A stretch of 64,000 bases of DNA, from contig OZ336878.1 in assembly GCA_965287045.1 (NCBI GenBank), forward strand, positions 96,782,001-96,846,000. Direction: 5' to 3'. Positions 17,830 through 63,971 of this stretch are shown here, one piece after another. Within the stretch, counting starts at the first letter, position 1, and every line of letters begins with the position of its first letter. Position numbers and translations under genes: made by a program. This DNA is from Carcharhinus amblyrhynchos (lineage: Eukaryota). The notes beneath the pieces are model-generated. The model ran no database searches, was not told the DNA's origin, and saw only the letters and a program-made list of their open reading frames with translations.

Positions 17830-18098
17830 TTAAATATCAGTTGGAATAGCAGACTTATTCCATAAATTGTATATTCTAACGATGTAATAGATTAATGTCT
17901 CACTTTGTCCCTATCAAGCAGCTCTTTAAAGAATCGTTACCATGCATTTCTATAAATTGGCAAACGTGCAAGTCTGGTGCAAAAACCATGGCGATAGTGT
18001 GAGATATCACTTATAGTTAGAAACCTATCATTTTGCACGACCAACTTACAATCAGAAATGTGAACCAGCAGTGAAGAAATGATTTATGTTCCTTGCAG

Positions 18099-18991
18099 CT
18101 AATTTGGTGACAATCGTTATACTCGCCCGTGGAAAATGCGGTCTTTCCAAATGCATCACCCGTTATCTCGTCACAGTGGCGGCTGCTGACTTTATGGTTC
18201 TGATATTTGAAGTAACTCTTTATGTGACGAAAACTGTGAGTTTGCCAAACTTATTCCTGAAGTACACGCCCATTTGTAGCCTCAATATTGCTCTACTGTT
18301 TCTGTTCATTGATTGTTCCGTCTGGTTAACTGTGGCCTTCACTTTCGATCGATACATCGGTATTTCTCAACAAAGTTTGCAAACAAAATACTGCACAGAG
18401 AAAATTGCATCTTTGGTGACTGTTGTGGTGTGTCTCTTGTGTATTCTGGAAAATGCTCCAATTTATTTTGCTTACCAGCCTCGAAAAATCATTGATAATC
18501 TACCCTTCTCCTGTCGTCTGAAATCAAGCTTCTACACGTCACCAATATGGGTGGCATTTTTATGGTTGGAAACTATTTTAACTCCCTTTGCGCCATTTCT
18601 GTTGATCTTGCTGTTTAATTTACTCACCATCAGGCATATTTTATTTGCGAATAGAGTTCGAAGACAGCTACGTAAAAGGACGGATGTCCGGAATAAAACA
18701 GATCCCGAGATAGAGAGCCGCAGGAAATCTATAATTTTACTTCTCGCGATTTCTGGCAGTTTCTTACTCTTGTGGATGGTAAATTTTACATTATTCGTAC
18801 TTGTGCAATTTACAGATATTAAATTGTTGCATGACGATTACAACGACCCCGGCACCATTGCAGAACAGTGTGGATATATGCTTAGGGCTTTGAGTTCTTG
18901 CACAAATACATTTATTTACGGAGCCTCTCAACGCAAATTCCGGGAAGAATTATTATTGCTTTTCCAAAGGCTGTCATTCGGAAATTTGTGA
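18099..18991 (+). CDS. GPR139/GPR142-like GPCR paralog 2, exon 2 (spliced product 320 aa, intact)
   Basis: Acceptor ttccttgcag ends at 18098. Motifs RGKCGLSKCITRYLV, AADF (TM2), FTFDRY, LTPFAPF (TM5), ESRRKS, CTNTFIY. Stop TGA at 18989-18991; AATAAA at 19015-19020. Confidence 0.95.
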
Positions 18992-20969: not shown

Positions 20970-22470
20970 GTTCTCGAAAGTCAGCCGGTGGAAAGCGACT
21001 AGCCCAATGGTGTACCCGGGCAAGCACTCAGATCCAGCGCGGATCAGCTGGCCGGGGTATTCACAGACAACTTCAGCCTCGCTTTCCAACAGTCTGAGTC
21101 CATATCTGCTTCAGGAAGATGACTATTATCCCGCTGTCTAAGGACAACTAAGCAGCATTCCTTACGACTATCAACCAGTGGCTCTGACATCCATTATGGC
21201 GGTCTGCGAAAGGCTAGTCATGGCACGAATCAATTCCCGCCTCACGGACTACCTTGATCCACGACAGTTTGCCTAGCGCTGCAACAAGTCCATAGCAGAT
21301 GCCATCTCCCTGGGCCTGAACTCAACCTTGGAAAACTTAAATTACAAGGACACGTAAGACAGAGCCCTACTTATTGATTACAGCTCATCCACTAGCACCA
21401 TTATTCCCACGAAATGCGTCACCAAACTCCGTGGCCTGGGCCTCCGCACCTCCCTCTACGAACGGATCCTAAAATTCCTAACGTACTGACCGCAATCCGT
21501 AATAATAGCCAACAACACCTTCTCCACGATTATCCTTAACATAGGTGCCCCACATGGCTGTGTTTTCAGCTCCCTACTATACTCTTTTTACACCTGTGAC
21601 TATGCGGCCAAATTCTCCTCCAATTCTATTTTCAAGTTTGTTGGCCACACCATCGTAGTGGGTCGCATCTCAAAGAATGATGCTATAGAGGATAGGAATA
21701 AGATACAGAATCTGGTGAACAGATGCGGCAACAATAATGTTTTTCTCAATGTCAGCAAAACGAAGGAGATTGACTTCAGGAAGCGAAAAGGAGAAAATCC
21801 CCCGGCCTACATCAATGGTGACGAAATGGAAAGGGTCGAGAGCTTCAAGTTTTTAGATGTCCAAATCACCAACGTCTCTCCTCTCTCCACCACCCCCCCC
21901 CCCCACCTCCCCCCCACCCCATGCCAAAATTATAGTTGAAAAAAAACACCAACGCCTGTGCTTTCTCAGAAGACGAAGGAAATTTGACAATGTTAGCGAC
22001 GACTTTCACCAGTTTTTACAGATGCCTCAAAAAAAATTATGGTAGTGTCACAACGTGGCATGGATCCTGCCCTGCCCAAGGCCGCACGAACGGTCGTGAG
22101 TACAGCCTAACCTATAACACAAACCATCCCCCCATCCTTTGATTCCGTCTATCCTTCCCACTGCTTTGGCAAAGCAGATGGCATAATAAAGGATCACACG
22201 CACCCCGGACATTATCTCTTCTACCTTCTTCCGTCGGAAAAAAAAATACAAACGAATCAAGAACTGCCGCTTCCATGCTGCTGTTAGAATTTTGTTTGAA
22301 CTTACCTGGCATTAAATTGATCTTTCCCTACACCCTAGCTATGACTGCACCACTACAGTCTGCACTCTCTCATTCTTTCTCCAAGAACGGTATGCTTTGC
22401 CTGTGTAGCGCACAAGAAACAATACTTTTCTTTATACGTTAATGCATGTGAAAATAAGATGTCAAATCAG
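20970..22470 (+). mobile_element. Rex1/Babar-clade LINE, 5'-truncated and degenerate
   Basis: Broken RT reading PVALTSIM..., LDPRQFA, LLIDYSS..TIIP, GAPHGCVFSSLLYSFYT, IFKF..., NNNVFLNVSKTKEIDFRK, HQRLCFLRR. Confidence 0.85.
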
Positions 22471-23929: not shown

Positions 23930-26870
23930 ACGATCAGTCAGCAGGGCTAAGTGCATGTCTGTGAGATGCGGGAGATGCCCGAGGCTTCACGTGTTTCGGA
24001 CAACTACATTTGCAGTAAGTGCACCCAGTTGGAGCTCCTCAGAATCCGCACCAATCGGTTAGAGCAGGAGTCGGATGCAATTAGGAAAATACATTCGGCG
24101 AAGAGCCTCATACACAGGAGGTTTAGGGAATCGGCCACGCCTAACGTGGAGCAGATACATGGCTGTCCGCGAGAAAGGACAGGCAGTCAGCGCAGGAATC
24201 CTCTATGATTATCATCCTATCTATCGTTTCTGGTATTGTTGCAGAGGATGGTCTCTCAGGGGAAAATAGCAGCAGCCAAGGCAATGCTATCACGACTGAC
24301 TGTATTGCTCCGCAGGGAGGGTCAAGGCGTAGTAGAACAGTGGGTATGGAGCCAATATAGTCAGGGGCGGACACAGGTATTTATTGGCTGGGAAACTAAT
24401 TCCAGGATCGTACCTTGCCTCACCTTGCAAAGGGAAATGATGGCTTTGAACGGGCATGGAACATTTTGAAAGGCGAGGGCGAACAATCTGAAGTCGGGGT
24501 CCATATGCGTGCATACAACCTAAGCAGCAGGAATGCCGAGGGCCTGCAAGGAGAGTTCAGGTTGTTAGGTGGCAAATTAAGAAAAACTACCACTAGGGTT
24601 GAAATCTCAGGATTACTTCCTGTGGCACGTGACATTGAGCCTCGTAACAGGAAAATAATGCAACTAAACAGTGTTGTCGTGTTGGTATAGGAATGAGGGG
24701 TTCAAATGTCTTGATTATTGGGATTTCTACCGGGGCGCTTGGGACCTGTAAAAGAAGAACTCATCACACCGAAACTGAAGGAGCACAATTATCCTTGCCT
24801 GCAGTCACTTGGGAGGTTTTACATCAACATGGCAGGGGGTAGGAACTAGCGCAGTAGATTACTAGGAGAATTAGTGGAAGGGCAGCTCCAGAATAAGGCC
24901 TGTAATATTAAGAGGAAACACAGGCGAGGTGTAGCTGATGAACACAGCGGGGCTGGTCGTCCGAAATACGTTTGTTTCAACATGAGGAATCTAAAAGGTA
25001 AGATAAATGAATTTAGAGATTGAACTAATAATTTGGTCTACGATTTTGCTGCTAAATCAAGATTGGCTTCGAGACTTGGTTGGGAGATGAACAGATTGGA
25101 AGCCAGTCATTCCAGAATTTAGATGTTTCAGGCAAGAAACAGGGGGATATTAAAAGGGGTGTGTGAATTGCATTACTGGTTCAGAAGATTATCACAGCTG
25201 TGCAGAGGCAGTACACTATGCAGAGTTCAGGCAGCGAGGCAGTATGTGTGGATCTCAGGAATAGGAAGTGTGCATTCATAATGCTGGCGCATATCACAGA
25301 CCGTCCAACAGTTAGCCAGAGAATGGGATGCCGATATGCAACCAGATTTTGGAACATCTACAAACGAGAGGGTTGTTGCGATGGGTGATTTTAAATTTCC
25401 CTATATTGGCTGGGCCTCACTGACTACTGGGAAGTGGTTAGTTCAGAATATGTAAGGAGCATTCAAGAGGGTTTATTACAATAACTAGTAAATAGCCCAA
25501 CTTGGGAATGAGCCACATTTGCATTGGTATTGGGAAATTAGCCCGACCAGATGATCAAACATTCAGCAGGAGAGGATCGTGGGAGCAGTGAACAAAATTC
25601 TGTAGGTTTTTAGAGCTTGTGGAAAGAGACGAGAGTGATCCTTGAGATAAAGGTGTTAAATTAGGGAAGAGTGACAACAACAACATTAGGCAGAATCTGA
25701 AGAGTTTGCATTGGGGGAAGCTGTTTGAGGGTGAGGCAACATCCAACATGTGGAAGTTTTAGAAATGTCAATTGATCAGAAGTGAGTTCTGGTATGTACC
25801 TGCGAGGATAAAGAATAAGTGTAGCAAATATTGGGAACAGTGGATAACTAGGGATATCATAAGCCTTTTTTTCAAAAAAGAGAGATGGAGCACTCATAAG
25901 GTCTGAAACACTTACAACAAACGGAGCCCTTGAAGAATATTGCAAAGTAGGAAGGTACTTAAGGAAGGAGGTAGGGGCTAAAATGGGTCATGAAACATCC
26001 TTGGCAAACACGATTAAATGAAATCCTAAGGTATGTATATGCATGTAAAGAACATCAGTGTAACCAGGGAAGTGGTTGTATAGTGGTGAGAATGTATGCA
26101 TGGAACCAAATGAGACACTACGTGAATATTTTGCCTCAGTATTCCCCAATGGGAAGGACTTGGTGGGTGAGAAACTCAGAGCAGGGTGTGCAGACATTCT
26201 GATCATGTCGATATTGAAAAGGAGGAGTTCTTTGGCGTATAAAATAGTATTACAATAAATACTCATGACCTGATGGAACTCCCAGCCACCTGCCGAACGG
26301 ACAGCCTGTTCCGAAAGCTTGTGGCGATTGCTACAAATAAACTTGTTGGAATTTAAGCTGGTGTTGTTTCTGATGGCTGTACCCAGAATACTGAGGGAGG
26401 CAGGGAAAAAATGTTGGGTCCTGACAGATATCTTTGTGTCCACATTGGCTACAGGTTATGCTCCAGGAGATTTCAAAATAATCGCTGTTGCTCCTTTGTT
26501 AAATATATTCAGCAGAAATAATCCAGTACATTTTGGGCCGCCAAACTTTATGTCTCTGGTAGGCTAATTATTGAAAACCTTTCCTTATGGATAGTTGTTA
26601 CTCAAATTTGGAAATAAACAGACTTTTTAGTGATAGGCAGGATGGTTTTCTGAAAAGGAGTTTGTGCCTCACAAACTTGATCAACGTTATCGAGGAAGAT
26701 GATAGGTGAGGGAAAGAATGTTGTATTCATGGAATTCATTAAAACCTTTGACGAGGTGCCTCATTTCATACTGTACAAAAGGTGAAGTCAGGTGGGATCA
26801 CAAGAGAGCTGGCAAGATTGATACATAACTGATTAGAGCATAAAACACAAATAATGTAGGAAATGTCATC
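23930..26870 (+). mobile_element. CR1 LINE, near 5'-complete and degenerate (ORF1 zinc finger/zipper and esterase; ORF2 endonuclease and start of RT)
   Basis: CEMRE...YICSKCTQLELLRIRTNRLEQE; EVGVHM...LGGKLRKTTTRVEISGLLPV; SEAVCVDLRNRK; MGDFKFPYIGW; RT start near 26450-26860; many stops and frameshifts. Confidence 0.85.
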
Positions 26871-27705
26871 TATACCTATTGAAGGGAAGATTATAGGATA
26901 GGATGAGAGGAAACAATACCCTTGGTCTAGGTGCCTGCAATACAATTTATATTCAAAGATGCCTGTATAACAATTTACATTAGTAGGGGTAAAGAGTATG
27001 TAATGAATATGCATGAATTTACTGTTATATGTTCACAAAGGGCATGTATGAAATCGCCACCACGTTATCAGGAGCTCAGGATAGTAAAACGACACAAGAT
27101 GGGTGCTAGCTTTCAGCCACACTCCTGAGCACCACTAGCTGGCTTGAGCGCAAGCTTATGCACAACAGACCACAGATTCTTGTGACTGGTACTAGTCTAT
27201 GATCTGAGGTCTCGGATGGAAACCAGACATGGAGGATTTGGGAGTGCAGTCTTGGGGGATGATAAGGAGGACAACTGGACAAAGAGTATTGCACACTCAA
27301 GGACTCCAAATGGGAGAAATATTGACGAGGTACCATGAATGGTGAACATGAGACCACGAGCGGATCATGCGCAATCCCACCTTTCATAAAGCCTCTTATT
27401 TATTGAATACGTGACTACTGTATGCCATCTGTAATCAATATTATTGGACAAGGTCCAGCCGTGAATAGCTGTAGATGTTTGAAAAATGTATAAGAATGGG
27501 CGTTTTCTTTTTCTTTGTTCACCAGAGAGAGGCACTGGGTTTAATAGAAGCCCTTTCCCCGCCCGTGAAATTAAACAGTTCGATGCCTGGACCCAACCCT
27601 GGGCTGTGAGTGTTTTATTTCAGAGTCTTTCCGGCTAACAGTTTGATCCCCGCTTTCGATAATGGGCTGACCCCACCAGCTCCTGAAACAGAGGTTTTAT
27701 GGAAT

Positions 27706-28111
27706 ATAGGTTGAGGGAGCTGGGACTCTTCTCCCTGGAAAGACGAAGATTGAGAGGCGATCTGATAGAGGTTTATAAAATGTTGAGAGGAATAGATAGG
27801 GTGGATTCTCAAAGGCTATTTCCCCGGGTTGAAATGGTCGCTACGAGAGAACACAGATTTAAGGCGCGGGCAGGCAAGTACAGAAGTGATGTCAGGGGTA
27901 AGTTTTTCACTCAAAGGGTGGTGAGTGAATGGAATCGGCTGCCGTCAGTGGTGGTGGAGGCGAACTCGCTGGGGTCTTTTAAATACTTCTGGATGAGTAT
28001 ATGGGATTTAGTGGGATTGGGAGTTATAGATATGGATTGGTAGGTGTTGATGTGATCGGCGCAACTCGTGGGCCGAAGGGCCTGTTTGTGCTGTAGTGTT
28101 CTATGTTCTAT
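27706..28111 (+). mobile_element. Young 5'-truncated CR1 3' end inserted in the ERV 3' region
   Basis: Open frame RLRELGLFSLERRRLRGDLIEVYKMLRG...KFFTQRVVSEWNRLP; 3' end gggccgaagggcctg...gttctatgttctat. Confidence 0.92.
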
Positions 28112-28187: not shown

Positions 28188-30620
28188 TTATATCAAATTG
28201 AACTGGTCCGAATTGCCCTTCCTACCATGTTGTGTCTTGTCCCTCAAGGTTTTAGCAGCGGCCCTCATCCTTTTGTGTTGCCGATATTTGTTGCACGACC
28301 GGCAAGCGGTAGTGCCCCATGCAAAGGCTAGAAGTAGTTGCAGGCCTCCAATTATGTGTGTAATGGTTCAAATCCAAGAATGAGTATTAACATTCAGCCC
28401 CGAATCCCACACTCTCTGCCACCAGCTTTCTTCCAGCTATAATATTTCGGTATATTTTTCCAAAGTCTGAATTTTTGCATGTAGCTGGCGATATAGCTTT
28501 ACTGAGTGTCCGACTAAATCTTAGATCTCACCGAGTTTCTGCTAGGTTTGCGATAGGGACCAGTTCTGGTGTCTGTCCGGAGGGTGTCTGTCATTTTGAT
28601 AGCCTGTATGGTTTGGCGCCTAACTTGAATGATCCTAGCTTGGCCTATAGTGACATGCAGAAGTGATGTGAAACAAAAATTGGGTTTGGGGGTCATGCAT
28701 AACAGACCATTACAACGATAAGAGGTCATGGTGGTAGAGACACAGTATTTGCACTTGTCCACGTATGCTATGTGGGCAAAGTGCCCAGAGTGTGGCTCGA
28801 TCTCCAGGACGCATCCCTCAGTAAGGTTGAAGCCACATTCGACATTGTCTCCCTGTCTCACAGGGTGGAGGCGCACGGTAATAGGACTAATAGGTTCAGG
28901 AGTAGAGGGCACAGCCTCAAGATAAGCGGGGTGGGTGGAGGGGAGGGGGGCGGCAGTTTAAAACAGAGTTGAGGAGGAACTTCTTCACTCAGAGGGTGGC
29001 GAATCTCTGGAATTCCCTGCCCGTTGAAGGGGTTGAGGCTTCCTCGCTAAATATATTTAAGATGCGGGTAGATAGGATTTTGGTAGCCAAGGGGATTAAG
29101 GGTTATGAGGAGAAGGCGGGAAAGTGGAACTGAGCCACTTCAGATCAGCCATGATCTTATTGAATGGTGGGGCAGGCTCGAAGGGCTAGAGGGCCTCCTC
29201 CTACTCCTATTTCATATGTTCTTATGCTCTTATGTTCTTAATGTTACCTCTCTGCTTGCACCCCGCAAGGGAGACTCCATAGAAGGAATTGTTCCAATGT
29301 ATGACTGCTGTCTCGGTCAGGTGATAATGGAGATAGTTATTTCCCGGTACTACTCCGATGTTTTCCAACTGGAACAAGGGAAAAGATCCTGAGCCCGGTG
29401 TAACGTTAGAATTCATCAGGACAATCCCCACCCCCAGTAGTCTCGCTCATCCCACAATCGGGGACTACTGATGGGGCTTTTGAGGGTGCATTTTTCCAGC
29501 ACCCCTGTCTGTCTGGTTATATGTGCCAAGCGGGAGCTGTCAATCCAAATTGGATACCGCCTCTCTTCGGATATGACTGAGATTATGTATCATCTGTCTC
29601 ACCACCCATAAGCCGTATGCATGACAAAGTTGCCCCTGTTATGATCGTGCAGTGTCCTCCCTTCTCTCTGTCTATCTGGTGGTCAATCGTACGAGCATAG
29701 TCCTCCAGCATGTTATTCTATCTAACTGGATATCCATACCTGCCTCCCCCAAAATTGTTTGTGTCTCTTGTGTGTCCTCTGATCGTTTTATGAGATCCCT
29801 CATGACCCGTTTAAGTTCTTCCACTTTCTCATTTCACCCCTGGGTATCCAATGAATTTACCAGGGAGGGTCATGTGTTCACCTCTGTGGGCATGTCACTA
29901 ACTATCCCTCTTTTTCTCCTGTCTCCGAACTCTAGATGTCCCCATGGCGTCGACAGCCTGTCTCAAATACAATTTGACTTAACAAAATATATATGCTTTT
30001 AGATTGTTCTGAACAGTATTCCGTTAATTGAATATTGACGAGAACCGGTCGAATCTCGCATTTTACATTATCATACAACATGTCTCCTTCGTTTAGGAGT
30101 ACAATCCCGTTCTCTGGTCCCTTATAAACCATGGGACATGGCAATATTGCTGGAAAGGGAATCGGAGCGGACGGTGGAGTAATAGGAGGGGAAAAACAAG
30201 CAGACAGGGATAGTGCCACTGCATCCGCCTCCTCATAATATCCGCACACTCCAAGTTTCTTCTTGGGCAGTTGGGATGGGCCGAGCCCAGCTACACATAT
30301 AATTCCAAAAATACATCCGTCCTTTTTTCTGCAGTTCCCTGTGATCCACACAACCAGTGGCCCGATCGGAAGTACGTGATCCTTGTCCGGATAAACTTGT
30401 AACGAAGCATTAAAGTAAGTTTTATCTTTAGTCCAGTCATTTCCTGCCCGAATGCAAATTCCGTCGGTGAAGTTGTACAACGCTCCGTAGCCCATGGGAT
30501 TTCGGCCCACCAAGGTCTGTTGCGTTTGAAGGATCGGTCGACATGATTCAGGGAGAGCGTTTCTGAAGAAACGTCCAGGAGGAGAAGTCCGCAAAGCTGA
30601 AGTACCCATTTGAATTCCAT
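28188..30620 (-). pseudogene. env: Retroviral env pseudogene, class I fusion protein with F-like layout, split by a CR1 insertion
   Basis: Signal peptide MEFKWVLQLCGLLLLDVSS; Cys/N-glycan domain; Pro hinge; RRKR|GIVSD at 29909-29920; heptad NEKVEELKRVMRDLIKRS; Cys-rich region (ORFs 29222-29431 and 28514-28912); KLYRQLHAKIQTLEKYTEIL; WWQRVWD; TM ITHIIGGLQLLLAFAW; basic tail; TAA at 28188-28190. Confidence 0.8.
28883..29238 (+). mobile_element. 5'-truncated CR1 inserted into env, flanked by TAAT
   Basis: RGHSLKI...RRNFFTQRVANLWNSLP; tail tatgttct-tatgctct-tatgttct; TAAT at 28879-28882 and 29239-29242; removal restores env GCKQRGNI|TV. Confidence 0.9.
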
Positions 30621-32799
30621 GACCTATGGGTTTAAAACAAAATGAGCCTGGGGCACCATGAATTAATCAACACTATTAATTTAACTCCTTCCATGCAAGC
30701 TAGCGTCCGGGGTTTAAAAGGAGAGAATTCGATTTAGGTGAGGGAAGCCTTAACATTTCTATCTCTTCAGGTGGCTCTGGAAAGTGGTGACTTGTTTGAG
30801 TCCTCAATATTGCCCATTTAAAAAATAACATGAACGCCATATAAAAGAGAAATGAATACGAATGCCCAATTGCACTGTGCTGCAGAGCGCTAACTCACGC
30901 CTGGTAACATTCAGCTGACAGGCGGTTTCCCTCATCATTGCGTGTTCAGACATTATCCTTTGGATCATAACACTTTAGTTTTCACATCAATACAAGTGTC
31001 ACTTGTCATAATGATGTCTGAGGGCCCGGTTCATTTGGATGCAAATCTCACTTGTTTTGGGACCACTCTTACTAATACTCTGTCCTGTGCTGCTAAGCAA
31101 GTACAGCTGCCTGCATTGCATCACTTTCCTCACAGAAAATGTGAAATAGTTTGGCGATGTCAGGCAATCCCAGAACTGGTGCTGTCACAAAGCCTGATTC
31201 AAATCTGAAAAAAAAAGCCTGTACTTCTGCATCTCCCTCCTCTATGTTGTTCTGACTAGCGTCCCCTCCCTTTATTAAATCCTGTAAGGGCTTTCGCACT
31301 TGGGCGTAATCTTCCAAAAACTTCCTACAATAGCTAAAAAAAATCTTCAATGCTTGTTTTATCCTTTTTTCTGGTGAAAACTCTTTGTACATTTTTTTCG
31401 AATATTATAACCAAAGAACATATTTGGAACAGATATCAAATCTTTTAATCTGATGCCAGACCATATATTGTTTGTTCTTGTCCTAAAGAACATCATTTTA
31501 TTAAGGTAACTTGCTTACAGCAAATTTCCCTATGTCAGAATCTTCCCAAACTAAGAAAACTGTGTTGTGGGCTTTCAACTGTCTATTGATGTTTAGTTTG
31601 CCTCTTCTTTCTGTTAAGGATACTTTGTTTCCTTATCCATAGCCATCACGTAAACTGTATTCTACTTCCTTGAATCCCTTTAAATACCCCTCTTGTATCT
31701 AATGAATCTCACTTTTGATTCTGTTCTCTTCTATTTATTATCAGCTCCTCTCTAATATACCTTATATTATTCCGTTCATTTTATTTTCTCATTTATTCCA
31801 CTGAATTATTTCCTTCATTTATTATTATATTAAGTTGTCAATTTGGTATTATAATTGGGCTCTCTCTATAAGCCCGTCTGGCATCTAATACAGTTTTCAA
31901 CCTTCCCAGATTCAAAATTTACAACAGGCTATGTGTTTCGAACTACTACTTCAGTTTTGTGATTGATTCACTAACGTTGCATAATCATGTAACACATTTT
32001 AATTAGAATCCATTATGGCAGTATAATAATTCCCATCATTAAACACGCACTCCCATTCTACCTGATGTAACTCCCATTTCCGTTAGATTTTTAGTTGTAC
32101 GCCTTAAAATTACTGCAAGTCTTATAACACAAAGATCTATCCTGTCTGGGACAGAGTGGCTTAATTTTCTGCTTATTTCAGCAAGGGCGGAGTAAGTTCA
32201 TTCACATTGACATCATCACTTCAAACATTCTGGAATCATTCTTTCCATTTACCTTTTCTTTGTCAGTCGTATCAAGAATACATTTTCGAATTTAACAAGA
32301 CGCCTGATCCAGGTAATCCAAAATAAAATTTGTCGACACAGGAGTGCTTGGTGATTACTCTGTATCTGCAGTCACGACGTTTGTGCGGAAGGTTTATTTT
32401 TTTCCCCCCTCTTGTAAGCTACCTCACCACCTTTTGCGATCCCACCCGTGCAGACATGTAATTTTTGACCCGTCTAGCTGTATCTTGGGTGGAAATACAT
32501 ATATTTTTGCTGGAATTGATAAAAAGGCGGCAGTTTTGCCCCAGAAAGTACAAAAGTGAACGAAATGGTTTTTTTTTCGATAATTAGTAATGCTTAATTG
32601 TTTCATTGTTGCCATTCGACATTTAATTCCAGATGTTCTATTACGCTTTGAAATCTCCCCCATTTGTCTTGGATTTATCTAGATTTCTCGTTAAACGATA
32701 ATACCACTGTGTCATCATCTCCCTCTATCATGTTTGCTCATTGTGACTTGATGCAGCCCCACTCCGAGACACATTGAACCCATGCCCTTCGATACAATT

Positions 32800-35600
32800 T
32801 TTCATTTACTCCCCATTATGTTCACAGGATATAATTAGTAGAAGATGGAAGGAGAAAATTCATGGTGGTTTCCCGAGCTGTGCCTGTTATCAGACTTTGA
32901 GCAGTACGCCCTCGAGCTGGAGCAGGAAATGCTCATCGGCAGCCAAGCCGGCATCTAATATGCAGGTAAGCATCAGCTGAATCATATTCCTAATGTATTT
33001 TTTGATGCAACTGCGATGTTAAGCAGACTGTTTTCCGAACCTTCGACGAACGTCTCCATTCTTAGAGGAGACAGTTCTGATGCCCCAGGCTCTTTTGGTG
33101 CCGCCGCCCCTCTGCTCTGTCTGCTCAGATTCTCAGGACACCTCAGAGGACAACTTGGAATGAGGGCTTGAGGATCCTCCTACGACAGCACAAATGAATT
33201 GACATAGGCAACAACGACACAAATTACCGACACAGACAACCACGACGGTGGGCCATGTTACAGGTGACGCTTTTGGGTCACTTACTGGTGAGCATCAGTC
33301 GTGAAACGTCTGAGTCAGTGATTTGTCTTCATGGGTGACGAGTGCAGGCCATCCTGAATGCACAACGGATCATGGCAGAGATACAATAGGGCATGACCAA
33401 GGATGTTGCTGGCATTCTGAAGGCACATTGGCCCATGGTCTAGTGTGCCAGAGGGATTTTGGTGACGCAGCTGGCCATGCCTTGGGCTCTTGCAGGGGTT
33501 TTGGAGGCACAGCAGGCTGTGGATGTGGACCTTGGCAACTCTGTCCTCACGGGGCTAATGGAGATTGGCTCTCGAGTTTGGCCCAGTGTCAGACGGCTAG
33601 TGCGTGTGGATGACAGAACATGGTACAGATAAATCTGGACCTCGGTGACTGGCAGAGCCAGGTGACCTCGAGGCTTGTAAATCTCAGCACAACTGCCTTG
33701 GAGTCTTATGGAGTGTACCTGGGTCAACGGGCACCACGAGGGAGGAAGAACGGCTGGAGGTTCTGCTGAAGCCTTCCGTGTTCAGGAGACGCCGGACGAC
33801 CCCTGAACTCTCGAACTTCTCCTTCCTCACATCAGGAAATGCCAGGATAAATAAGGTGACACGGAGGCAAGTCGGCCGGTACCCTTCAGGTCACAGTCCC
33901 CCAATCGACGTCCTCCAAGATCATCACAGAATATGATCATAGTTGGGCGCCTCCGTCTCCGATATGCAACCTGTGTGACCGAGGATTAGCAGTAGGCCAT
34001 GTAATATACGAAGGTTGCATCGTAACTATGAGGGCACATGTGAAGATCAACACTAGACAGGATTAATCTTTTTTAAAAAATATTAAAGCTGTGACTAATA
34101 TTTCTGATTCCTACCGACAGGTCTGAATGTTTCCCGTTTCCATGCGTTGAGGGACAGACCTTTGTAATGTGCGATATCTGCTCCTCGGTTAAAGGTTAGA
34201 GGCCGCCTTCCTGCCTGCATTCCCAAGCATCTACTAAACCCTATGTCAAACAATGTCCCTTTTTATACCTCCTTCACCCCACCAATCACTCGACCCATTA
34301 TCCCACGCATTTGTCATCTAAACCTTTATTCCTAGAGGCCAGTGTGCAGTCGGAGAACTGGTAGGAGTCAGAGATGTACGGTGCCAGGGCGGGATCCCAG
34401 TGTTCCTTACAGCGACTCGTCATCACCATCCAGCCTTAACCATAGACTTGGTAGCACCGCCAGCCCAGGCCCATGACCCTGGTGTGATGTGTCTCAGAAA
34501 CATATGAGGGATGAGTGAGTGAAAGATGGCGGGGAGGGGATGGGTCGTTGTGGCGTGTGGGGTGAAAGAGGACGGTGGAGTGGATGCGTCAGGGTCATTT
34601 TGAGGGTGCACTTAAAGATTGGGGCCTGCAGCTGCAGCGTTTCTAAAAGCGTGGTGGCATGGTGTTGGCACTGGCTGCCGCACTGTACGGCAGCAATTAC
34701 GTGAATCTTGCAAAGAAGACCGCATCCTGTCCTGCCCTGTCCTCCCGTACTTTGTTGTAGCTGCCTGTCCTCTATCCTTCAGATCCTTATACTTCACCCC
34801 CTTCTTATGCTGTAGTTGGAAATGCTCCTCTCCTCTTCCATGTGGCCTGTCGCTGTTGCACAATATTTTGGAGCATGGAACACTCAATGATGATGCGGGA
34901 GGCGCACAAAAAGATATATTACAGTGCAGGCCAGGCGTCAGAAGTGCATCTTAAAGCGTTTTGTGGACAGCTGCAGAATAGGCTGTGTGGCAGCGTGGAC
35001 TCAATGTAGCGGGCCAACACGTTGTTCTCGGTTCTCCTCATTGTGGCCATCATCCATTACGGTGGCGGGAGATCCTTGCACCGCCGCCGCCCCCCACGCC
35101 CCCGCACCCCCCCCCCCGCCCCACCCCAGCCCTCCAGCTATAGCGGCGCCTAGGACTGCTCTTCAATGCACACATCTGCATAATTATTAGTCTGTGGTCA
35201 TAGGTTATCTGGACCTTCAGAGATTGGAAACCATACCAGTTGTAAGCTGCTGTGGCTCACCTTGCTGGACACACAGCGTACTGTGCACCACATCCACAAC
35301 CCATTGTAATTGAGCGTGCCAGAAGTGGCGGAGAGGATTGCAGACCATGCCTTCTGCTGCGCTTGGTTAACATCAAAGTTGATATACCGGCCTGCCTGGA
35401 CGTGCAAGTATTCGAAGATTTGGCGGACACTGCTGCGCACAGATGCTACAGAAGACTCCACAAGTACCTGGAGTGATCCACTCGCGTAAAATTTCAAGGC
35501 CACCGTAACCTTATGTTCCACGGGAAGCTGTTCCTCTCCGATCCCCTGAGATGCCAGGCCTGCAAGGGCTTGCCACATTTGCCTTGCGCAGGCAGAACAC
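32800..35600 (-). mobile_element. PIF/Harbinger DNA transposon remnant (HARBI1-like nuclease on minus; GC-rich partner-gene debris likely on plus)
   Basis: ORF 35198-35578 LPVEHKVTVALKFYASGSLQ...RYINFDVNQAQQ matches the HARBI1-type transposase N-terminal region; outer boundaries are approximate. Confidence 0.7.
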
Positions 35601-35654
35601 TTGGCTTAAGACAAGCCTTAAAACGTCCTTATTATCCTGTGCAGCCTTCATTCC

Positions 35655-41835: not shown

Positions 41836-42879
41836 AGCAATATACCGATGACTGTAAAACAACTGTTAATTATAGAAAAATAAAACATCAGATAGTTTTT
41901 CTTTCAGGAATGGAATCCACCTTGGAGAGCTGGTCGCACTTACATGTGAATCCTGAGTGACCAGAATATGATTAAATCTCAACTGCCCTCTAAAACTGAA
42001 TAGCACAGATTCAGTTCAAGGGCAAGTCGGACTGGTCCTTAAATGCTGGTCCGCCAGCAACGGCCATGTCCCACGAATGATGAAACGAAACTGTCATATC
42101 GCAGTGTTTGTGTATTTTAATTGTCGATATCCATAATGTTTGTGAGCAGGCTGCCATTGTGTAAGTTTGTTTCTTTACTGCACAAGCTCACTGTTTTGCT
42201 CAGCAAGCTATGATAGGTAAAGCTCCAATTACTGATGTTATACAATCTTTGCTTACCAGACAAAAGGTAATGAAATTCCTGCAGCATTAGTAGAAGATTG
42301 GCGATCTACTGGACCAAGAGTGCACAACACTTGGATTTGTGCCATGAAAAATTGTGTTTATATTTCAAGAGTGTGGCCAGCCTCAGTAATTGTCATTGAT
42401 TATTCAGGCAAGGCGGATGAGAAGATTTTTCATTGCAGACTGATGCATGAAGAGGAGGTTTGATGGAATCATTCACAATATTGAAACACATGGACACTTT
42501 GGGGAACAACTGCCCCCATTGTTGGAAGGATCAGGAACTATTCTTCACAGATAATTGTCAAAAGTACCAATAACGACAGTGTGTGTGTTTTTTTTTGGGG
42601 GGGGGGGCGTGGAGTGGAGCGTGGGGGCGTGGAGAATCAGCATTTCCCCGCAGAATGAGTGGCTTGAAACTTAAATGTACTGTCCCAGAGTGTGATGAAA
42701 GGAAGTTCGATTGAGACTTAAAAGAGCATGTTTTTTTTTATTATCTGAATAGCAACAAGTGCAGGTTTGTCGCTTGAGGAGCAGATTTCCGCCCAGTAAA
42801 TTGTTAATTCGGTGAGCTGGCGTAAAAGCCAAATGCTGTATCAGTCCTTTCTATGCTGCACGGATTGTTACTTCATTGG

Positions 42880-45600
42880 AATCCCTTCTGTCTTTGCAGC
42901 GGCTCTGGCGCTGGTGTCTCTTGTATTCATGGGCGCAACGACGACTACCATAGATTTCTGGTGATTATCTACAGCCGTTGCTCAACTTTTCAAACCATCA
43001 TCATTGTTAAAAGTTACCAGCCCTGTCTTTAGTACTGTCTGGTGCGCAAGACTCAGTCCGTCACGATATAATTGGAGGAAGGCTGGGGTCGGAGTTGGCA
43101 CGGTAGAGGTCTGTCCCTGAGCAGAGGCAGTGGTCTGAGGGGAGTAAGGTGGCGGAAGTGGGGACGAATCTGGCTGTTCAGTCTTAATATCTTGAGGTGG
43201 GGGTTGAGGATGAGGCTGAGGTTGAAGTTGGGGTAGGAGATGTGTTAGGGGTGGCAGAGGTAGATACAATGATTGAGGTGGTGGTTCTAGCGTGGCACTG
43301 AGTCCAATCCGCCAATCGCCCTCCTCTGGTTCATCCAGATCATTATTTGGAACATCATTGGCAGACCAGATATGTGGAGGTACCTCCGATTTTCTTTTTC
43401 TCTTTCATCAATTCGGCTTGATGCTCTAATCCCTGTTCTCTGTTTCGTCTTTCCCTTTTCAGCCTTTCCTATTTAACCCTTTCCCTTTCTTCATTCTATG
43501 ATCCTCACACTGCAACTTCAAAACCTCCCAATTTGGGGTTTCCCCCTATCGTCACAGGCACTAATCCATCTTCTACGTGCGCTACCCACCCAACTAGCCA
43601 AATTTGACTTTTTAGTGAACTCCTTAGCTGTTTTTTCTCCAAGATTATATTAAAATTTTCCATCTATTTCCTATATTGCGTATCCAAATAGCCTTCTTGG
43701 CTCAAATGCATTGATTTATATCCCAAGATCCCCCGAGTGGCCAATTTTCATTTCCTAATTTTTTGTTCAGGAACCCGGATAAACACTTGAGTAGCTCCTC
43801 GTCTTCCGGGTTTTCACGACACATTTTATATAATGGGGTCCGATCCCCTGACTTATCCAAAGTTTGTCCCATTGTTAAGAGACGTTGACCACTTGTGCTT
43901 CACAATCTTCAGTGTCCTGTTGCCCGCATGCCCACTTCAAGTCCTGACCTTTGCATGGGGGAGATCCGCTCCTAACAAACGGTCTGAGGCTCTGCGTTTG
44001 AGACAGGCATTCCCTTTCGAACAGCGCAAGTAGTCACGTTTCCAACTTCACCTAATTCCCATCCTTTTTTTCAAAAAACAATTTCACAAACATTCAACAA
44101 GAACAAACACGTTTTAACAAACCCTGCTTTCAATCTAATGCAACAGCAGACGCCTACATTCGACAAGCAACCAGACCCAACAAACACGCTGGAACACAAA
44201 CACTTCTCAAATTATTAGGTCAACCTCAGATTTTTCTCTAATCAATTTTTCCATCTTGTTAATTACTTTATAATATTTCCCTAGTAATTCCCACTCATTA
44301 CTACATCTCAGGGGGCTTGAACCTCAAGTTCTATTGACCTAGGGACTCGAACTCCAGTCATCAGGGGACTCAAACCACCCGGATTTAATATACCAAAACC
44401 CTGGGGACTCTAACCCCCAGGTACACGTGGCACAATCAAACCACCCACTTTCTAACTGAATAATGCTCGGACTCTAACTATCAGGCCACTGTGGGGGTGG
44501 GGGGGGGGGGTCGAACCAGTGGGGGGCCAACAATCAGGCCACTGGGGGGGTCTTAACAAATAAACCAGGTGTCTGTAACCACCAGGGCAACCGGGGCACT
44601 CGAACCTCCTGGTGTAGGACTAGCCAGTGTTCAAGGACATCAGTCCTCTCAAGGTTCCATCAACAGAGAGTCCCGGGCGATGAGAGGTCGACTGAGTAAT
44701 AGGTTCAGTGAGAGAGATCAATGTAAAATCTTACTTTGTGGGCCCATCCGTCTCACGTTACCTACACCCGGATGATCACTTATTCAGTCCGCCTCAGAGG
44801 ACAACTGAATATCTTGGATCCAAGGAATCGGTACCAAATCATTAGGTTCATTTTTTCAGAGACCCTTACTTGATGCCAGAGCGATATATTGATCTGTACA
44901 CGAAAACCCAGAATACCCAGTCCTTTATTTTCAAGCAAGTGCAGTCTTTTTTGGAGGATAGTATACTAACTCACCACAGTATGCTGAACTTTGCTGAACA
45001 ATGCTTCTTCAAACGGGGTGGAGGGAGGTGAGAGTCCCTCCCTTTATATTTTTTTTACAGCAATTAGTCGCGTACACACAGTATAAATTCACCCAGATCA
45101 CGTGCTTAGCAGCAACAAAAGTAAGTCGAAATACAGCATATGAGTAAAAAGACATTGAACACCCACCCCCGGTTGCCATCGACACTGCAAATCCACCATT
45201 ACTCGAGTATGAGAAAGCAACCATTCGTATATATATATCTTGGGATGTTACTTTGCCAATAAAGCGAACGTTATCTCCTTCAAACAAGCCCAGCATTTAA
45301 CCAAGTCCAGTCCAGACTGATTTGATAAAGCAAGAGTTTTCTTATTCATAAGGCAAGGGTGACAGTTCAGAATAGGGAGCATGTACTGATAACAGCACAC
45401 GTTCTTTCAAGCAAGATGCAGTTAATCACAGTTTTTAAGCTAATGAAGACTTTTCACTTTATCTGAAAGCAAATAGCTGCATTTGCAATTTTGCAGAACC
45501 TCAGCTTGCAAAACCCTTTTTTTCATAAATAGCCAAGATCATAGGAGATTCATGGGATGTTAACCCCTTAACATCTCACACCGATCCATGCACTACACCG
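42880..45600 (-). mobile_element. ERV 5' half: LTR, degenerate PBS, repetitive leader and gag N-terminus
   Basis: On minus: TATAAA near 45045, AATAAA near 44925, TGGTACCGATTCCTTGGA near 44826-44846, recurring ggggactcgaac-like units (plus reading) at 44310-44610, matrix-like ENWPLGGSWDINQC near 43720-43755, and a Pro/Gln-rich segment with a PPPY late domain (ORF 42982-43269). Confidence 0.65.
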
Positions 45601-61263: not shown

Positions 61264-62180
61264 CTATTTGTGATTTTTTTTCAATTTATTAAAGGCGATC
61301 AGGAAGGGCGTAATCATATTCTTCAATTCGTCTCGGAATTTCCTCTGGGACACTGCATAAATGAATGTGTTTGTGCAAGAACTTAAACACCGAAGCATGT
61401 AACCAGACTGTTCTGCAACGGTGAAAGAATCAGTGTAGTTTCCTTGCAGTAACTGGGAATCTGTGATTTGCACCAGTATAGCACATATAAATATTACAAG
61501 CCATAGCAGTATAAGATTTCCAGAAATGGCGAGGAGTAAAATTATAGATTTCCTTCGATTCCCTGCCTCCGGGTCAGTGAAATTCCTCCCAGTGTTATTT
61601 TTTCCTAGAAGCCCACTCCTCACTTTATTAGCCAGCATGATGTTGTTGATGGTCAGGGCATTGAGCAGCAAAATCAATGTAAGTGGAGCAAACGGAGTTA
61701 AAAACGTGTCGAACCACAAAAATGCAACCCATACTGGGGAGATGTAAAAGCTGGACTTCACGGCGCAGTATAGAGTCAGGTTTTCTATTATTTCCCGAGG
61801 TTCATAGATAAAGTAGATTGGAACATTTTGCAAAATCATGGCGAAGCACACCACTGTTATTACCTTAGTTGCAGTTTTCTCCGTGCAATATTTTCTTTGA
61901 AAGCTTTGGTAGCATATAGCAACAAATCGATCAAATGTGAAAGCAACAGTAAGCCATACAGAACAATCAACTGAAAGGAAGAGCAAGGCCAGATTGAGAC
62001 TACAAATGGGGGTATAGTTCAGAAACGAATACGGGAAGTAAGCATCTTTAATTTCATACAGAATAACTTCAAATATCAGGACCATTAAATCCGCCACCGT
62101 CATGGCTACCAAATAACGAGTGATGCACTTTGACAGACCACATTTTCCCCGACAGAGAATGACAACTGTCACACAATTAG
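61264..62180 (-). CDS. GPR139/GPR142-like GPCR paralog 3, exon 2 (open frame)
   Basis: Acceptor ttctattcttattgcag ends at 62181; ANCVTVVILCRGKCGLSKCITRYLVAM, FTFDRF, LTPFAPL, NRRKSIILLL, CTNTFIY; stop TAG at 61264-61266. Confidence 0.95.
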
Positions 62181-63971
62181 CTGCAATAAGAATAGAAATG
62201 AAGTTAACTGACATTAAGCAAGAACATATGCATAACACGGATGTAAATATTCTAATCCATACCTAAAAATGCGTTTTCTGTAATGCACATAGTACACCTG
62301 GAACCTGAGGCAAATTGATTTCGCTTGTTTCATTTATATTCCCATGCCTCATACCTCTAACTGATTTGAATCACATCTACAAAATTCCAGGTAAAGCCTG
62401 AAGCATTTCAGATTTTAATGTCTCCAAATATTTACGTAAATTCTGCTGGCCGAAATAAGCTAATCCTTCAAGCTCACCCAAAATGATCATATAGAAAAAG
62501 CCACAAACTCCATGTATGTTGCAGTATTACTTTGTGATTTTTTTTAAAAAATCCTGAGTTGCAAGCAGAATAGTATCAGAATTTAAACTATCCTATTTAT
62601 TCTGGAGTTGGTTTTGCCAAGTCTAATGGACTTATCACGAAGAAGCATTTTAATTCACATGATTGACCAGACCAGCGTCGGCCGCACGATATAGACTTGC
62701 ATAAACACCTCTGTATAATGCAGGACCTGAAATTTCCCCAGAAAATTTTCCTGATGGAACGATAAAAATCAGTTCAATGCTATTATATCAGCCTGATCAC
62801 GTTTGTTTTGTGAGAAATCACAAAGTGATCAGAGTGAATAGAAATTTTGTGTGCACGAATGATAATCTTTACCATAGGAGACACATTTCAGGTCTTAGAC
62901 AAAGTCAGAATGATGGTCAGGGGTAATCACCCCTTAGTGTCCAAAGACGTTAAGGTTAAATTGCTTGACGATGTGTGGGATGATGAATATAGGGTACATA
63001 AGGGATGTGCTTGACATGCCCTTTCGAAAAGTCAGTGCAGACTAGTTTGACCGAATATCCTTATAAAGCACTCGAGGGATTATATGGTTTTAAGCATTGC
63101 AGTGACAATGTGAGCAAGTGTGCTTCATATTTAAGACATTGGAATTGTCTGAAACTCCCAACACATGTGGCCAGTGAAAAAAAATCAAATGTTTCAAGTG
63201 AAATGTGAATGATTACTTGCAAGATAAAGTGTCGTGATTTGTTTGTAGATCTGTAGAATCTGGTTGAATAGATTACTCAACAGAGATCTATCATGGACAA
63301 GGGCTGTATAGCTTCCAATGTCATCAACGCGATTACAACACTACATGCCTGCTGTTCTATTTTCAACAACAATATACTAAACTTTACTTTGTTTAGTTTC
63401 CCTTGAACAGCCATCGAAAATCCCTTGTCAATTGTTCTGCTTTGTCTGCATGACTGAGAGTCTAACGTCTCAAGATTACTGTTTTTTTTTATCTGAACCC
63501 CTGAAAATGAGGAAGAAATACTTAAAACGTTTCGTAAATTATTTTACCTTCAAAACATCCCAGTTACTTGGAGCGATTTGAATAATACAGATTTAGATTT
63601 TTTGGAGAGCAGACCCTTAAAATGATGTAGGACTTGGAAGGCAATAATTTGACTACTTCCTTCCGGAAGTCACAGACATTCAGTCAACAGCGCTTCTCAG
63701 CCAACTTTGCAGAATATTTCTTAATATTCCCACGATTGTGAAGCTGCAAATACTGATAAATTGTCTTATAGTAGACGTCTGGTGAACTCACAACCTTGGC
63801 ATTTCATTCACCGTCTTTACCTGATACTTTGAGTGCCAGTTGTATTGTGCTACGACACACAAATGTGCCAAGCAAATCACGATAATCAACAACAACATTT
63901 CACTGCCAGTAGGAGGTGTGACATAGACAAATGCAATGACAGATCAATACAAATTACATATAGATACTTAC

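Follow-up and report, generated by a model that had tools for sequence, protein, structure and literature searches.

The window analysed here, meaning the whole stretch of 64,000 nucleotides, contains a dead retroviral env gene at positions 28188-30620 on the minus strand, broken by a CR1 insertion, about 10 stops and several frame changes. The positions that follow lie on the minus strand unless marked (+). The start codon (ATG at 30620) and signal peptide occupy their own frame at 30564..30620, with a frame break just 3'; in the relatives L045 and L059, this frame is continuous with the N-terminal domain. The family-specific, Cys-rich N-terminal domain (30190..30498) contains 6 Cys and 2 sequons, and is 38% identical to residues 39-224 of P0006, the unbroken 714-aa Mustelus asterias RefSeq model that served as the reference for the window env. 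A proline-rich hinge (30151..30189) leads into an F2-like part (29974..30150; GPENG motif at 30120), which consists of a Cys, two predicted strands, a further Cys and a pre-cleavage helix, and is common to a second envelope family described below as family B. The furin-type site RRKR, followed by GIVSD, was located at 29909..29920, and the fusion peptide, long heptad region and first beta region (FPLFQLENIGV/SLAGC) at 29240..29908, where the main frame holds 7 stops. The 3' end of a CR1 LINE inside env (28883..29238, +) is present in the paralogue L015 and missing from L041, L043 and L044. Beyond it lie the Cys-rich beta region and linker (28516..28882; ECGF, KYCVSTT and NFCF at 28882-28607), and then the second heptad, the Trp-rich membrane-proximal stretch with WWQRVWD at 28424-28404, the transmembrane segment (TM, about 28355-28302) and the tail (28188..28514). 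All the motifs named in the original prediction, from signal peptide to TM, were thus found in minus-strand frames, several of which are needed to join them.

The env pieces are collinear with P0006 at 38-57% identity, in several frames; the five main HSPs contain 10 stops. The post-cleavage subunit, predicted at about 450 codons, measures about 455 codons in the window with the CR1 removed, 461 aa in P0006 and about 457 in the family B protein P0002. No CX6CC motif occurs in P0006 or P0002, and CXXC, the gamma-type SU motif, appears once in P0006 (residue 81) and not at all in P0002. In a Pfam hmmscan at E<=1, none of 35 env family members matched TLV_coat, Fusion_gly or Foamy_virus_ENV. A post-cleavage part of about 460 aa, the missing CX6CC motif and the absence of TLV_coat matches bear out the view that this env is not gamma-type. 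A strict ISD regex gave no true site even in the gamma-type family C, and was therefore unusable as a test. Against L015, the window env showed a dN/dS of 0.8-0.9 (over 92 and 119 codons), which points to neutral decay.

Remnants of the element around env

Upstream of env, an integrase C-terminal remnant (30974..31087; 55% over 40 aa to the family A integrase) and an RT thumb/tether remnant (31135..31341; 45% to the family RT, E=2e-13; RT_RNaseH_2 E=0.01) were recognised, and the RT core, RNase H and integrase core are all deleted from the window copy. An AT-rich deleted backbone (31079..32331) is common to copies with F-type and with gamma-type env; the window copy ends at 32331. This boundary was considered as an LTR edge and rejected, being a break private to the window copy. 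A gag fragment of the same subfamily is displaced about 10 kb upstream (42864..43090).

On the other side, the polypurine tract (27646..27656) is the same as that of L041, L043, L045, L046 and L047. In both the window and L015, the 3' LTR of about 764 bp (26877..27640, +) runs opposite to env. The inverted segment, 26877-27645, comprises the entire 3' LTR and 5 extra bases between the polypurine tract and the host flank, and the inversion is absent from five other copies. No 5' LTR was found within the window. A second CR1 3' end (27700..28110, +) is missing in L015, and was therefore inserted after the segmental duplication that relates the two copies: the window copy sits in a duplication of ~44 kb, and L015 is 94.5% identical. 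Single-exon rhodopsin-type GPCR genes lie at 18083-18991 (+) and about 61325-62186 (-); they match 7tm_1 (E=5e-21) and are 70% alike, so that the ERV sits in a duplicated GPCR cluster. The window also contains what we take to be a decayed, near-full CR1-like LINE (23950-27030, +) and an RT-bearing non-LTR remnant (21000-22300), and possibly a fragment of a Harbinger-type transposase (35198-35605); one weak RVT_1 match was obtained among them.

Envelope families and predicted fold

A 128-aa env query returned 311 candidates in the genome, and all 150 that were scored matched; the window env is a member of a multi-copy shark ERV family. Its own subfamily, A2, comprises copies 73-82% alike in nucleotides. 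Family A proper is 45-55% alike to the window in amino acids and includes gag-pro-pol-env elements inside LTR pairs (L017, L012 and L004, at 98%, 95% and 94% identity, respectively). Family B is 25-31% alike to the window, with 902 candidates and some long unbroken frames. The env cores of families A and B are homologous (BLAST E=2e-80; HHalign 100%; 31-35% identity), while their N-terminal domains are unrelated (HHalign 0.2%). The extra N-terminal domain that had been proposed is therefore a variable module, real and specific to its family.

A-type env was also found in Mustelus, Chiloscyllium, Heterodontus and Pristiophorus. In a quick env tree, A2 joins Heterodontus and Pristiophorus proteins (SH-aLRT 100), disregarding the L016 row, which was cut out of frame. 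A profile search in which 8000 word-sharing candidates were scored yielded 19 proteins, all named ones from sharks; a homologue search with P0002, again with 8000 word-sharing candidates scored, gave no match, and a scan of IMG/VR with env and with RT detected no relative.

Several further observations concern individual copies. At L003:1213-3300 (-) (G000:C14), a family B env of 696 codons is unbroken; the pol of the same provirus contains 10 stops and about 6 frame changes. Pairwise env dN/dS was 0.29-0.45 for pairs with L003 versus 0.39-0.62 among broken relatives, and we regard the L003 env as a candidate co-opted envelope on these sequence grounds. No RNA record is listed as carrying it; contigs of three putative RNA runs span parts of it at about 90-95% identity and are not attributable to the L003 locus. 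Many family B copies are gag-env elements without pol (L020, L035, L028, L032, L033, L066), and the LTR-like repeats of L035 (686 bp) are 100% identical. At G000:C48 and at C13:74.9-75.5 Mb, RT copies of family A occur by the dozen; they are 81-84% identical and almost all carry one TGA. They cluster on one 3.6-Mb contig, and a single broken copy was likely amplified in tandem or by segmental duplication.

The original prediction assigned this env an architecture like that of paramyxovirus and pneumovirus F proteins. The order of elements agrees with an F-type protein: signal peptide, strand/helix piece, basic site, fusion peptide, first heptad region, Cys-rich beta region, second heptad region and TM. 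Two AlphaFold models, each with a mean pLDDT of 44 and a pTM of 0.22-0.25, agreed on one order of elements: strands and a helix N-terminal to the cleavage site and, C-terminal to it, a long helix, a beta-rich region and a second helix that precedes the TM. In a Foldseek search of the PDB, rows 1-14 were all F proteins of hMPV, RSV, hPIV3 or measles virus or foamy Env (rows 13-14), with a best E of 3.8e-3 (probability 0.80) and no row at E<=1e-3; TM-scores in these rows stayed below 0.3, and query-normalised TM-scores to F were only 0.07-0.16. No gp41, HA2, GP2 or gamma-type TM was among the PDB rows listed.

BFVD was searched with both models. The first model matched a torovirus spike (1.0e-5) and a fish paramyxovirus F (1.6e-5), then nidovirus spike and chu-like glycoproteins, with the WEHV-1 Env at rank 14 (E=4.8e-3, probability 0.23) and foamy Env at 0.047. 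The second model again had a torovirus spike on top (5.9e-6), its sole match below 1e-3, with no WEHV-1 row. SnRV Env was not among the 50 matches listed in either search, and BFVD may not contain it. With ESM features, the first match of P0002 was the Fusion_gly cluster (0.96; 213/256 shared), a score weakened by its low recognition value (1580), and the P0006 core matched Baculo_F (0.92) and Fusion_gly (0.89). No hmmscan match to PF00523 or PF12259 was obtained, the env profile had no match among PDB sequences, and a VIA-wide search returned generic helical bundles only (Z<=8.1). From the Foldseek rows, the ESM features and the element order, we conclude that the Env likely folds like the fusion protein of measles virus or RSV, both models being of low confidence. 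That the window Env is of F-type ancestry is in our judgement highly probable.

The linked pol and the probable exchange of envelope types

Since the RT core of the window copy is deleted, its pol was typed through relatives 45-55% alike. The family A RT with tether scored 223 bits to MLV versus 154 to foamy virus and 108 to Ty3; the RT core alone was equally close to foamy virus (170 bits) and MLV (166). The family A RNase H scored 99.5 bits to XMRV/MLV and had no foamy match at E<=1e-3, and belongs to group III (MLV-type), as in the SnRV-like clade. It has motifs in common with WDSV/Xen-1 as well as with SnRV. Family A Gag has two zf-CCHC knuckles; foamy Gag lacks CCHC knuckles. Judged by eye, the RT motifs of families A and B fit the SnRV row rather than the Loki rows in the part of the PMC7947760 supplement consulted, and the family A RNase H is without the Loki motifs shown there. 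A hand count over the same RT stretch gave about 43% to SnRV versus about 35% to WDSV; the SnRV placement is one by motifs and hand count, not by a tree with named references. These sequence features support the expectation that the linked pol is of SnRV/orthoretrovirus type, neither lokiretrovirus nor foamy.

Family B was for a time read as a lokiretrovirus, from an RT nearest to foamy virus, a weak foamy RNase H match and a coiled-coil Gag, and this reading was dropped after comparison with the supplement motifs. Its pol has an SnRV-like RT, a well-kept tether and an RNase H that is weakly foamy/MLV-like (30 bits), with a Tf2-like SH3 after the integrase and a long C-terminal tail, and its Gag has a coiled-coil N-terminus; family B is possibly a further deep lineage. 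A divergent RT at L048:863-2050 (-), 30-37% alike to A and B, is separated by a few kb from a piece of A2 env and sits on a long tree branch.

We compared family A with 20 loci picked for 53-62% RT identity to it (family C). In an RT tree from a quick search with a midpoint root, family A is sister to family C (SH-aLRT 99), with B outside. None of the 20 family C loci showed F-type env within the 10 kb retrieved for each, and TLV_coat was detected in 3 of the 7 loci scanned (L084 with E=1.8e-8, above the cutoff; L083 and L095 with E about 0.0025). Among 22 loci with the deleted backbone of the window, 7 carry an F-type env and 8 a gamma-type env, and 7 gave no env call. The gamma-type copies share this backbone at 73-77% nucleotide identity, and their env resembles that of L084 (E 1e-6 to 1e-29); three of these envs went undetected with Pfam alone. 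A backbone tree, from which L045 was left out (its backbone is only 92 bp), splits the F-env and gamma-env sets (FastTree 0.997). Envelopes have thus likely been swapped between related shark ERV copies, as judged from these alignments. Families A and B are about 40% identical in RT and 31-35% in the env cores; because the envs are more diverged than the RTs, the F-type env is more likely the older state, with the gamma-type as its replacement.

The pairing of pol and env had been called unusual. The pairing itself proved real; F-type env with SnRV/MLV-like pol is the norm in two large families of the present genome and in four further genera of sharks, and the WEHV-1 Env is among the fold-search rows. 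Being so widespread, it looks native to its lineage rather than a one-off, and is probably native to SnRV-like (perhaps epsilon) retroviruses. It is the gamma-type env of the sister backbones that looks recombinant.

Origin of the pairing and related viruses

We consider it probable that the locus, a dead and internally deleted shark ERV copy, is of SnRV-like descent and encoded a likely F-type (class Ib) fusogen with a swappable N-terminal domain. By analogy with F-protein biology, the intact Env precursor would lose its signal peptide, trimerise and be cut by furin at R-x-K-R, with the short F2-like piece held by a disulfide to the C-subunit of ~460 aa. On triggering, the first heptad would extend, the fusion peptide would insert, and the second heptad would zip back around the first, the Cys-rich beta domains making up the head. 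The N-terminal domain on its proline hinge is likely a receptor-binding module, which would take the role of the separate attachment protein of paramyxoviruses. The F-type env, common to A and B, would be old in the lineage, and gamma-type env would have replaced it at least once. The defective, RT-less subfamily may have been copied in trans with its 3' part exchanged, and the window copy, which makes no protein, would have decayed neutrally since the ~44-kb duplication. More broadly, and as a tentative possibility, the ancestor of Retroviridae may already have had an F-type env, which the foamy, loki, SnRV-like and epsilon lineages would have retained; gamma-type env would be a later replacement, both types having been exchanged on one shark backbone, and the N-domains of the F-type core would be interchangeable.

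A one-off chimera would explain the pairing differently: a class I/III ERV with a gamma-type env would have taken an F-type env from family B, a lokiretrovirus or an RNA virus, and given rise to family A and the window subfamily. Family C, the sister RT lineage of A, does have a gamma-type env, the tree needs two changes either way, and frequent env exchange is documented for XtERV-S and in the portions consulted of Chen et al. (10.1101/2021.11.23.469661). However, the lower identity of the A and B env cores than of their RTs fits co-divergence rather than recent capture, and the presence of A-type env across four shark genera means that any capture was ancient. We regard such a chimera as unlikely. 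An epsilonretrovirus-related ERV with a native long epsilon-type Env, F-like in itself, would accord with the WEHV-1 Env in the first BFVD search, with a published description, seen in part, of this Env class as neither gamma nor beta type, and with the RNase H motifs that family A shares with WDSV/Xen-1. It seems quite improbable: the RT motifs and hand count point to SnRV rather than WDSV, the Env has about 700 aa versus 1317 for WEHV-1, and the WEHV-1 row is weak and missing from the second search.

The Env might also be a long class I fusogen without relation to F, its matches reflecting the generic heptads and Cys-rich strands of a poor model. The low pLDDT and TM-scores, the lack of any sequence-profile match and the generic helices of the VIA-wide search would fit this; the identity of all 14 top PDB rows and the agreement of the language-model search from two different families argue against it and lead us to think it very improbable. 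The shark element might instead be a lokiretrovirus or a foamy-like virus: an F-related Env with signal peptide, RXKR, fusion peptide, coiled coil and TM is a lokiretrovirus hallmark in the sections consulted of PMC7947760, and the RT core scores equally to foamy virus and MLV. Yet the RT is without the Loki catalytic-region motif and the RNase H without Loki motifs, the RNase H being MLV-like and the Gag having two CCHC knuckles; this reading is already largely refuted, and we give it almost no weight. The SnRV-like ERV with a likely F-type fusogen is the explanation we retain.

In the portions available to us of PMC7947760, PMC9040795 and PMC11468914, an F-like envelope marks lokiretroviruses and foamy viruses, and orthoretrovirus Env falls in the unrelated class Ia, a split for which PMC9040795 prefers independent env origins. 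F-type Env on an SnRV/MLV-type pol breaks this division, and would make the four origin scenarios of Wang and Han (PMC7947760, as far as its available text goes) testable with one tree. An F-like SnRV-like or epsilon Env is not stated in the accessible text of those three papers, nor in that of PMC9967133, PMC4977317, PMC10536682, PMC13524379, PMC11521997, 10.1101/2021.11.05.467493, 10.1101/2021.11.23.469661 or 10.1101/2024.12.19.629443; the pairing seems unreported in the literature searched, subscription journals and bioRxiv supplements aside. What is new here is the apparent F/gamma exchange on one backbone, together with a sister RT lineage with gamma-type env. In the paired F-env and gamma-env copies, the exchange of two fusogen classes is naturally recorded; the window locus by itself is just one decayed family member, a variant of known retrovirus types.

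Among known systems, the lokiretrovirus Env (Wang and Han 2021; PMC7947760, in the parts consulted) is alike in signal peptide, RXKR, fusion peptide, coiled coil, TM and the link to Mononegavirales F. It differs in that the shark pol has RT and RNase H motifs other than those of Loki and the shark Env has no PF00523 hmmscan match; the same source lists no cartilaginous fish among lokiretrovirus hosts and describes the Loki Env as without overall similarity to retrovirus Env. Foamy Env resembles the shark Env in having what is likely a class Ib, F-like core to which a receptor-binding module is added (PMC11468914, accessible text), but its leader has a TM anchor and the added domain is inserted, whereas the shark Env has a cleavable-type signal peptide, one TM and an N-terminal domain. 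Foamy viruses differ further from the shark elements, whose Gag has CCHC knuckles. Epsilonretrovirus Env (WEHV-1, WDSV) resembles the shark Env in combining an orthoretrovirus pol with a long non-gamma Env and in its weak fold-search row; the shark Env is about half as long and the shark RT closer to SnRV. The F proteins of paramyxo- and pneumoviruses, baculovirus F and the F-type Env of errantiviruses share the element order and gave the best fold and feature matches, and the shark Env differs by its extra N-terminal domain of ~130 aa with hinge and by belonging to a vertebrate retrovirus. XtERV-S and anamniote ERVs combine a class III/SnRV-related pol with gamma-type env, as family C does (10.1101/2021.11.23.469661, portions consulted); this survey by Chen et al. 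searched for gamma- and beta-type Env only, and an F-type partner therefore fell outside its scope. SnRV and SnRV-like ERVs, including one elephant shark CmiERV lineage, are alike in RT motifs, about 43% RT identity by hand count and a group III RNase H. Cartilaginous-fish hosts of such ERVs were already known (PMC4977317, in the text available), and the shark elements differ from them in that the window copy is deleted and dead and in having sister lineages with gamma-type env.
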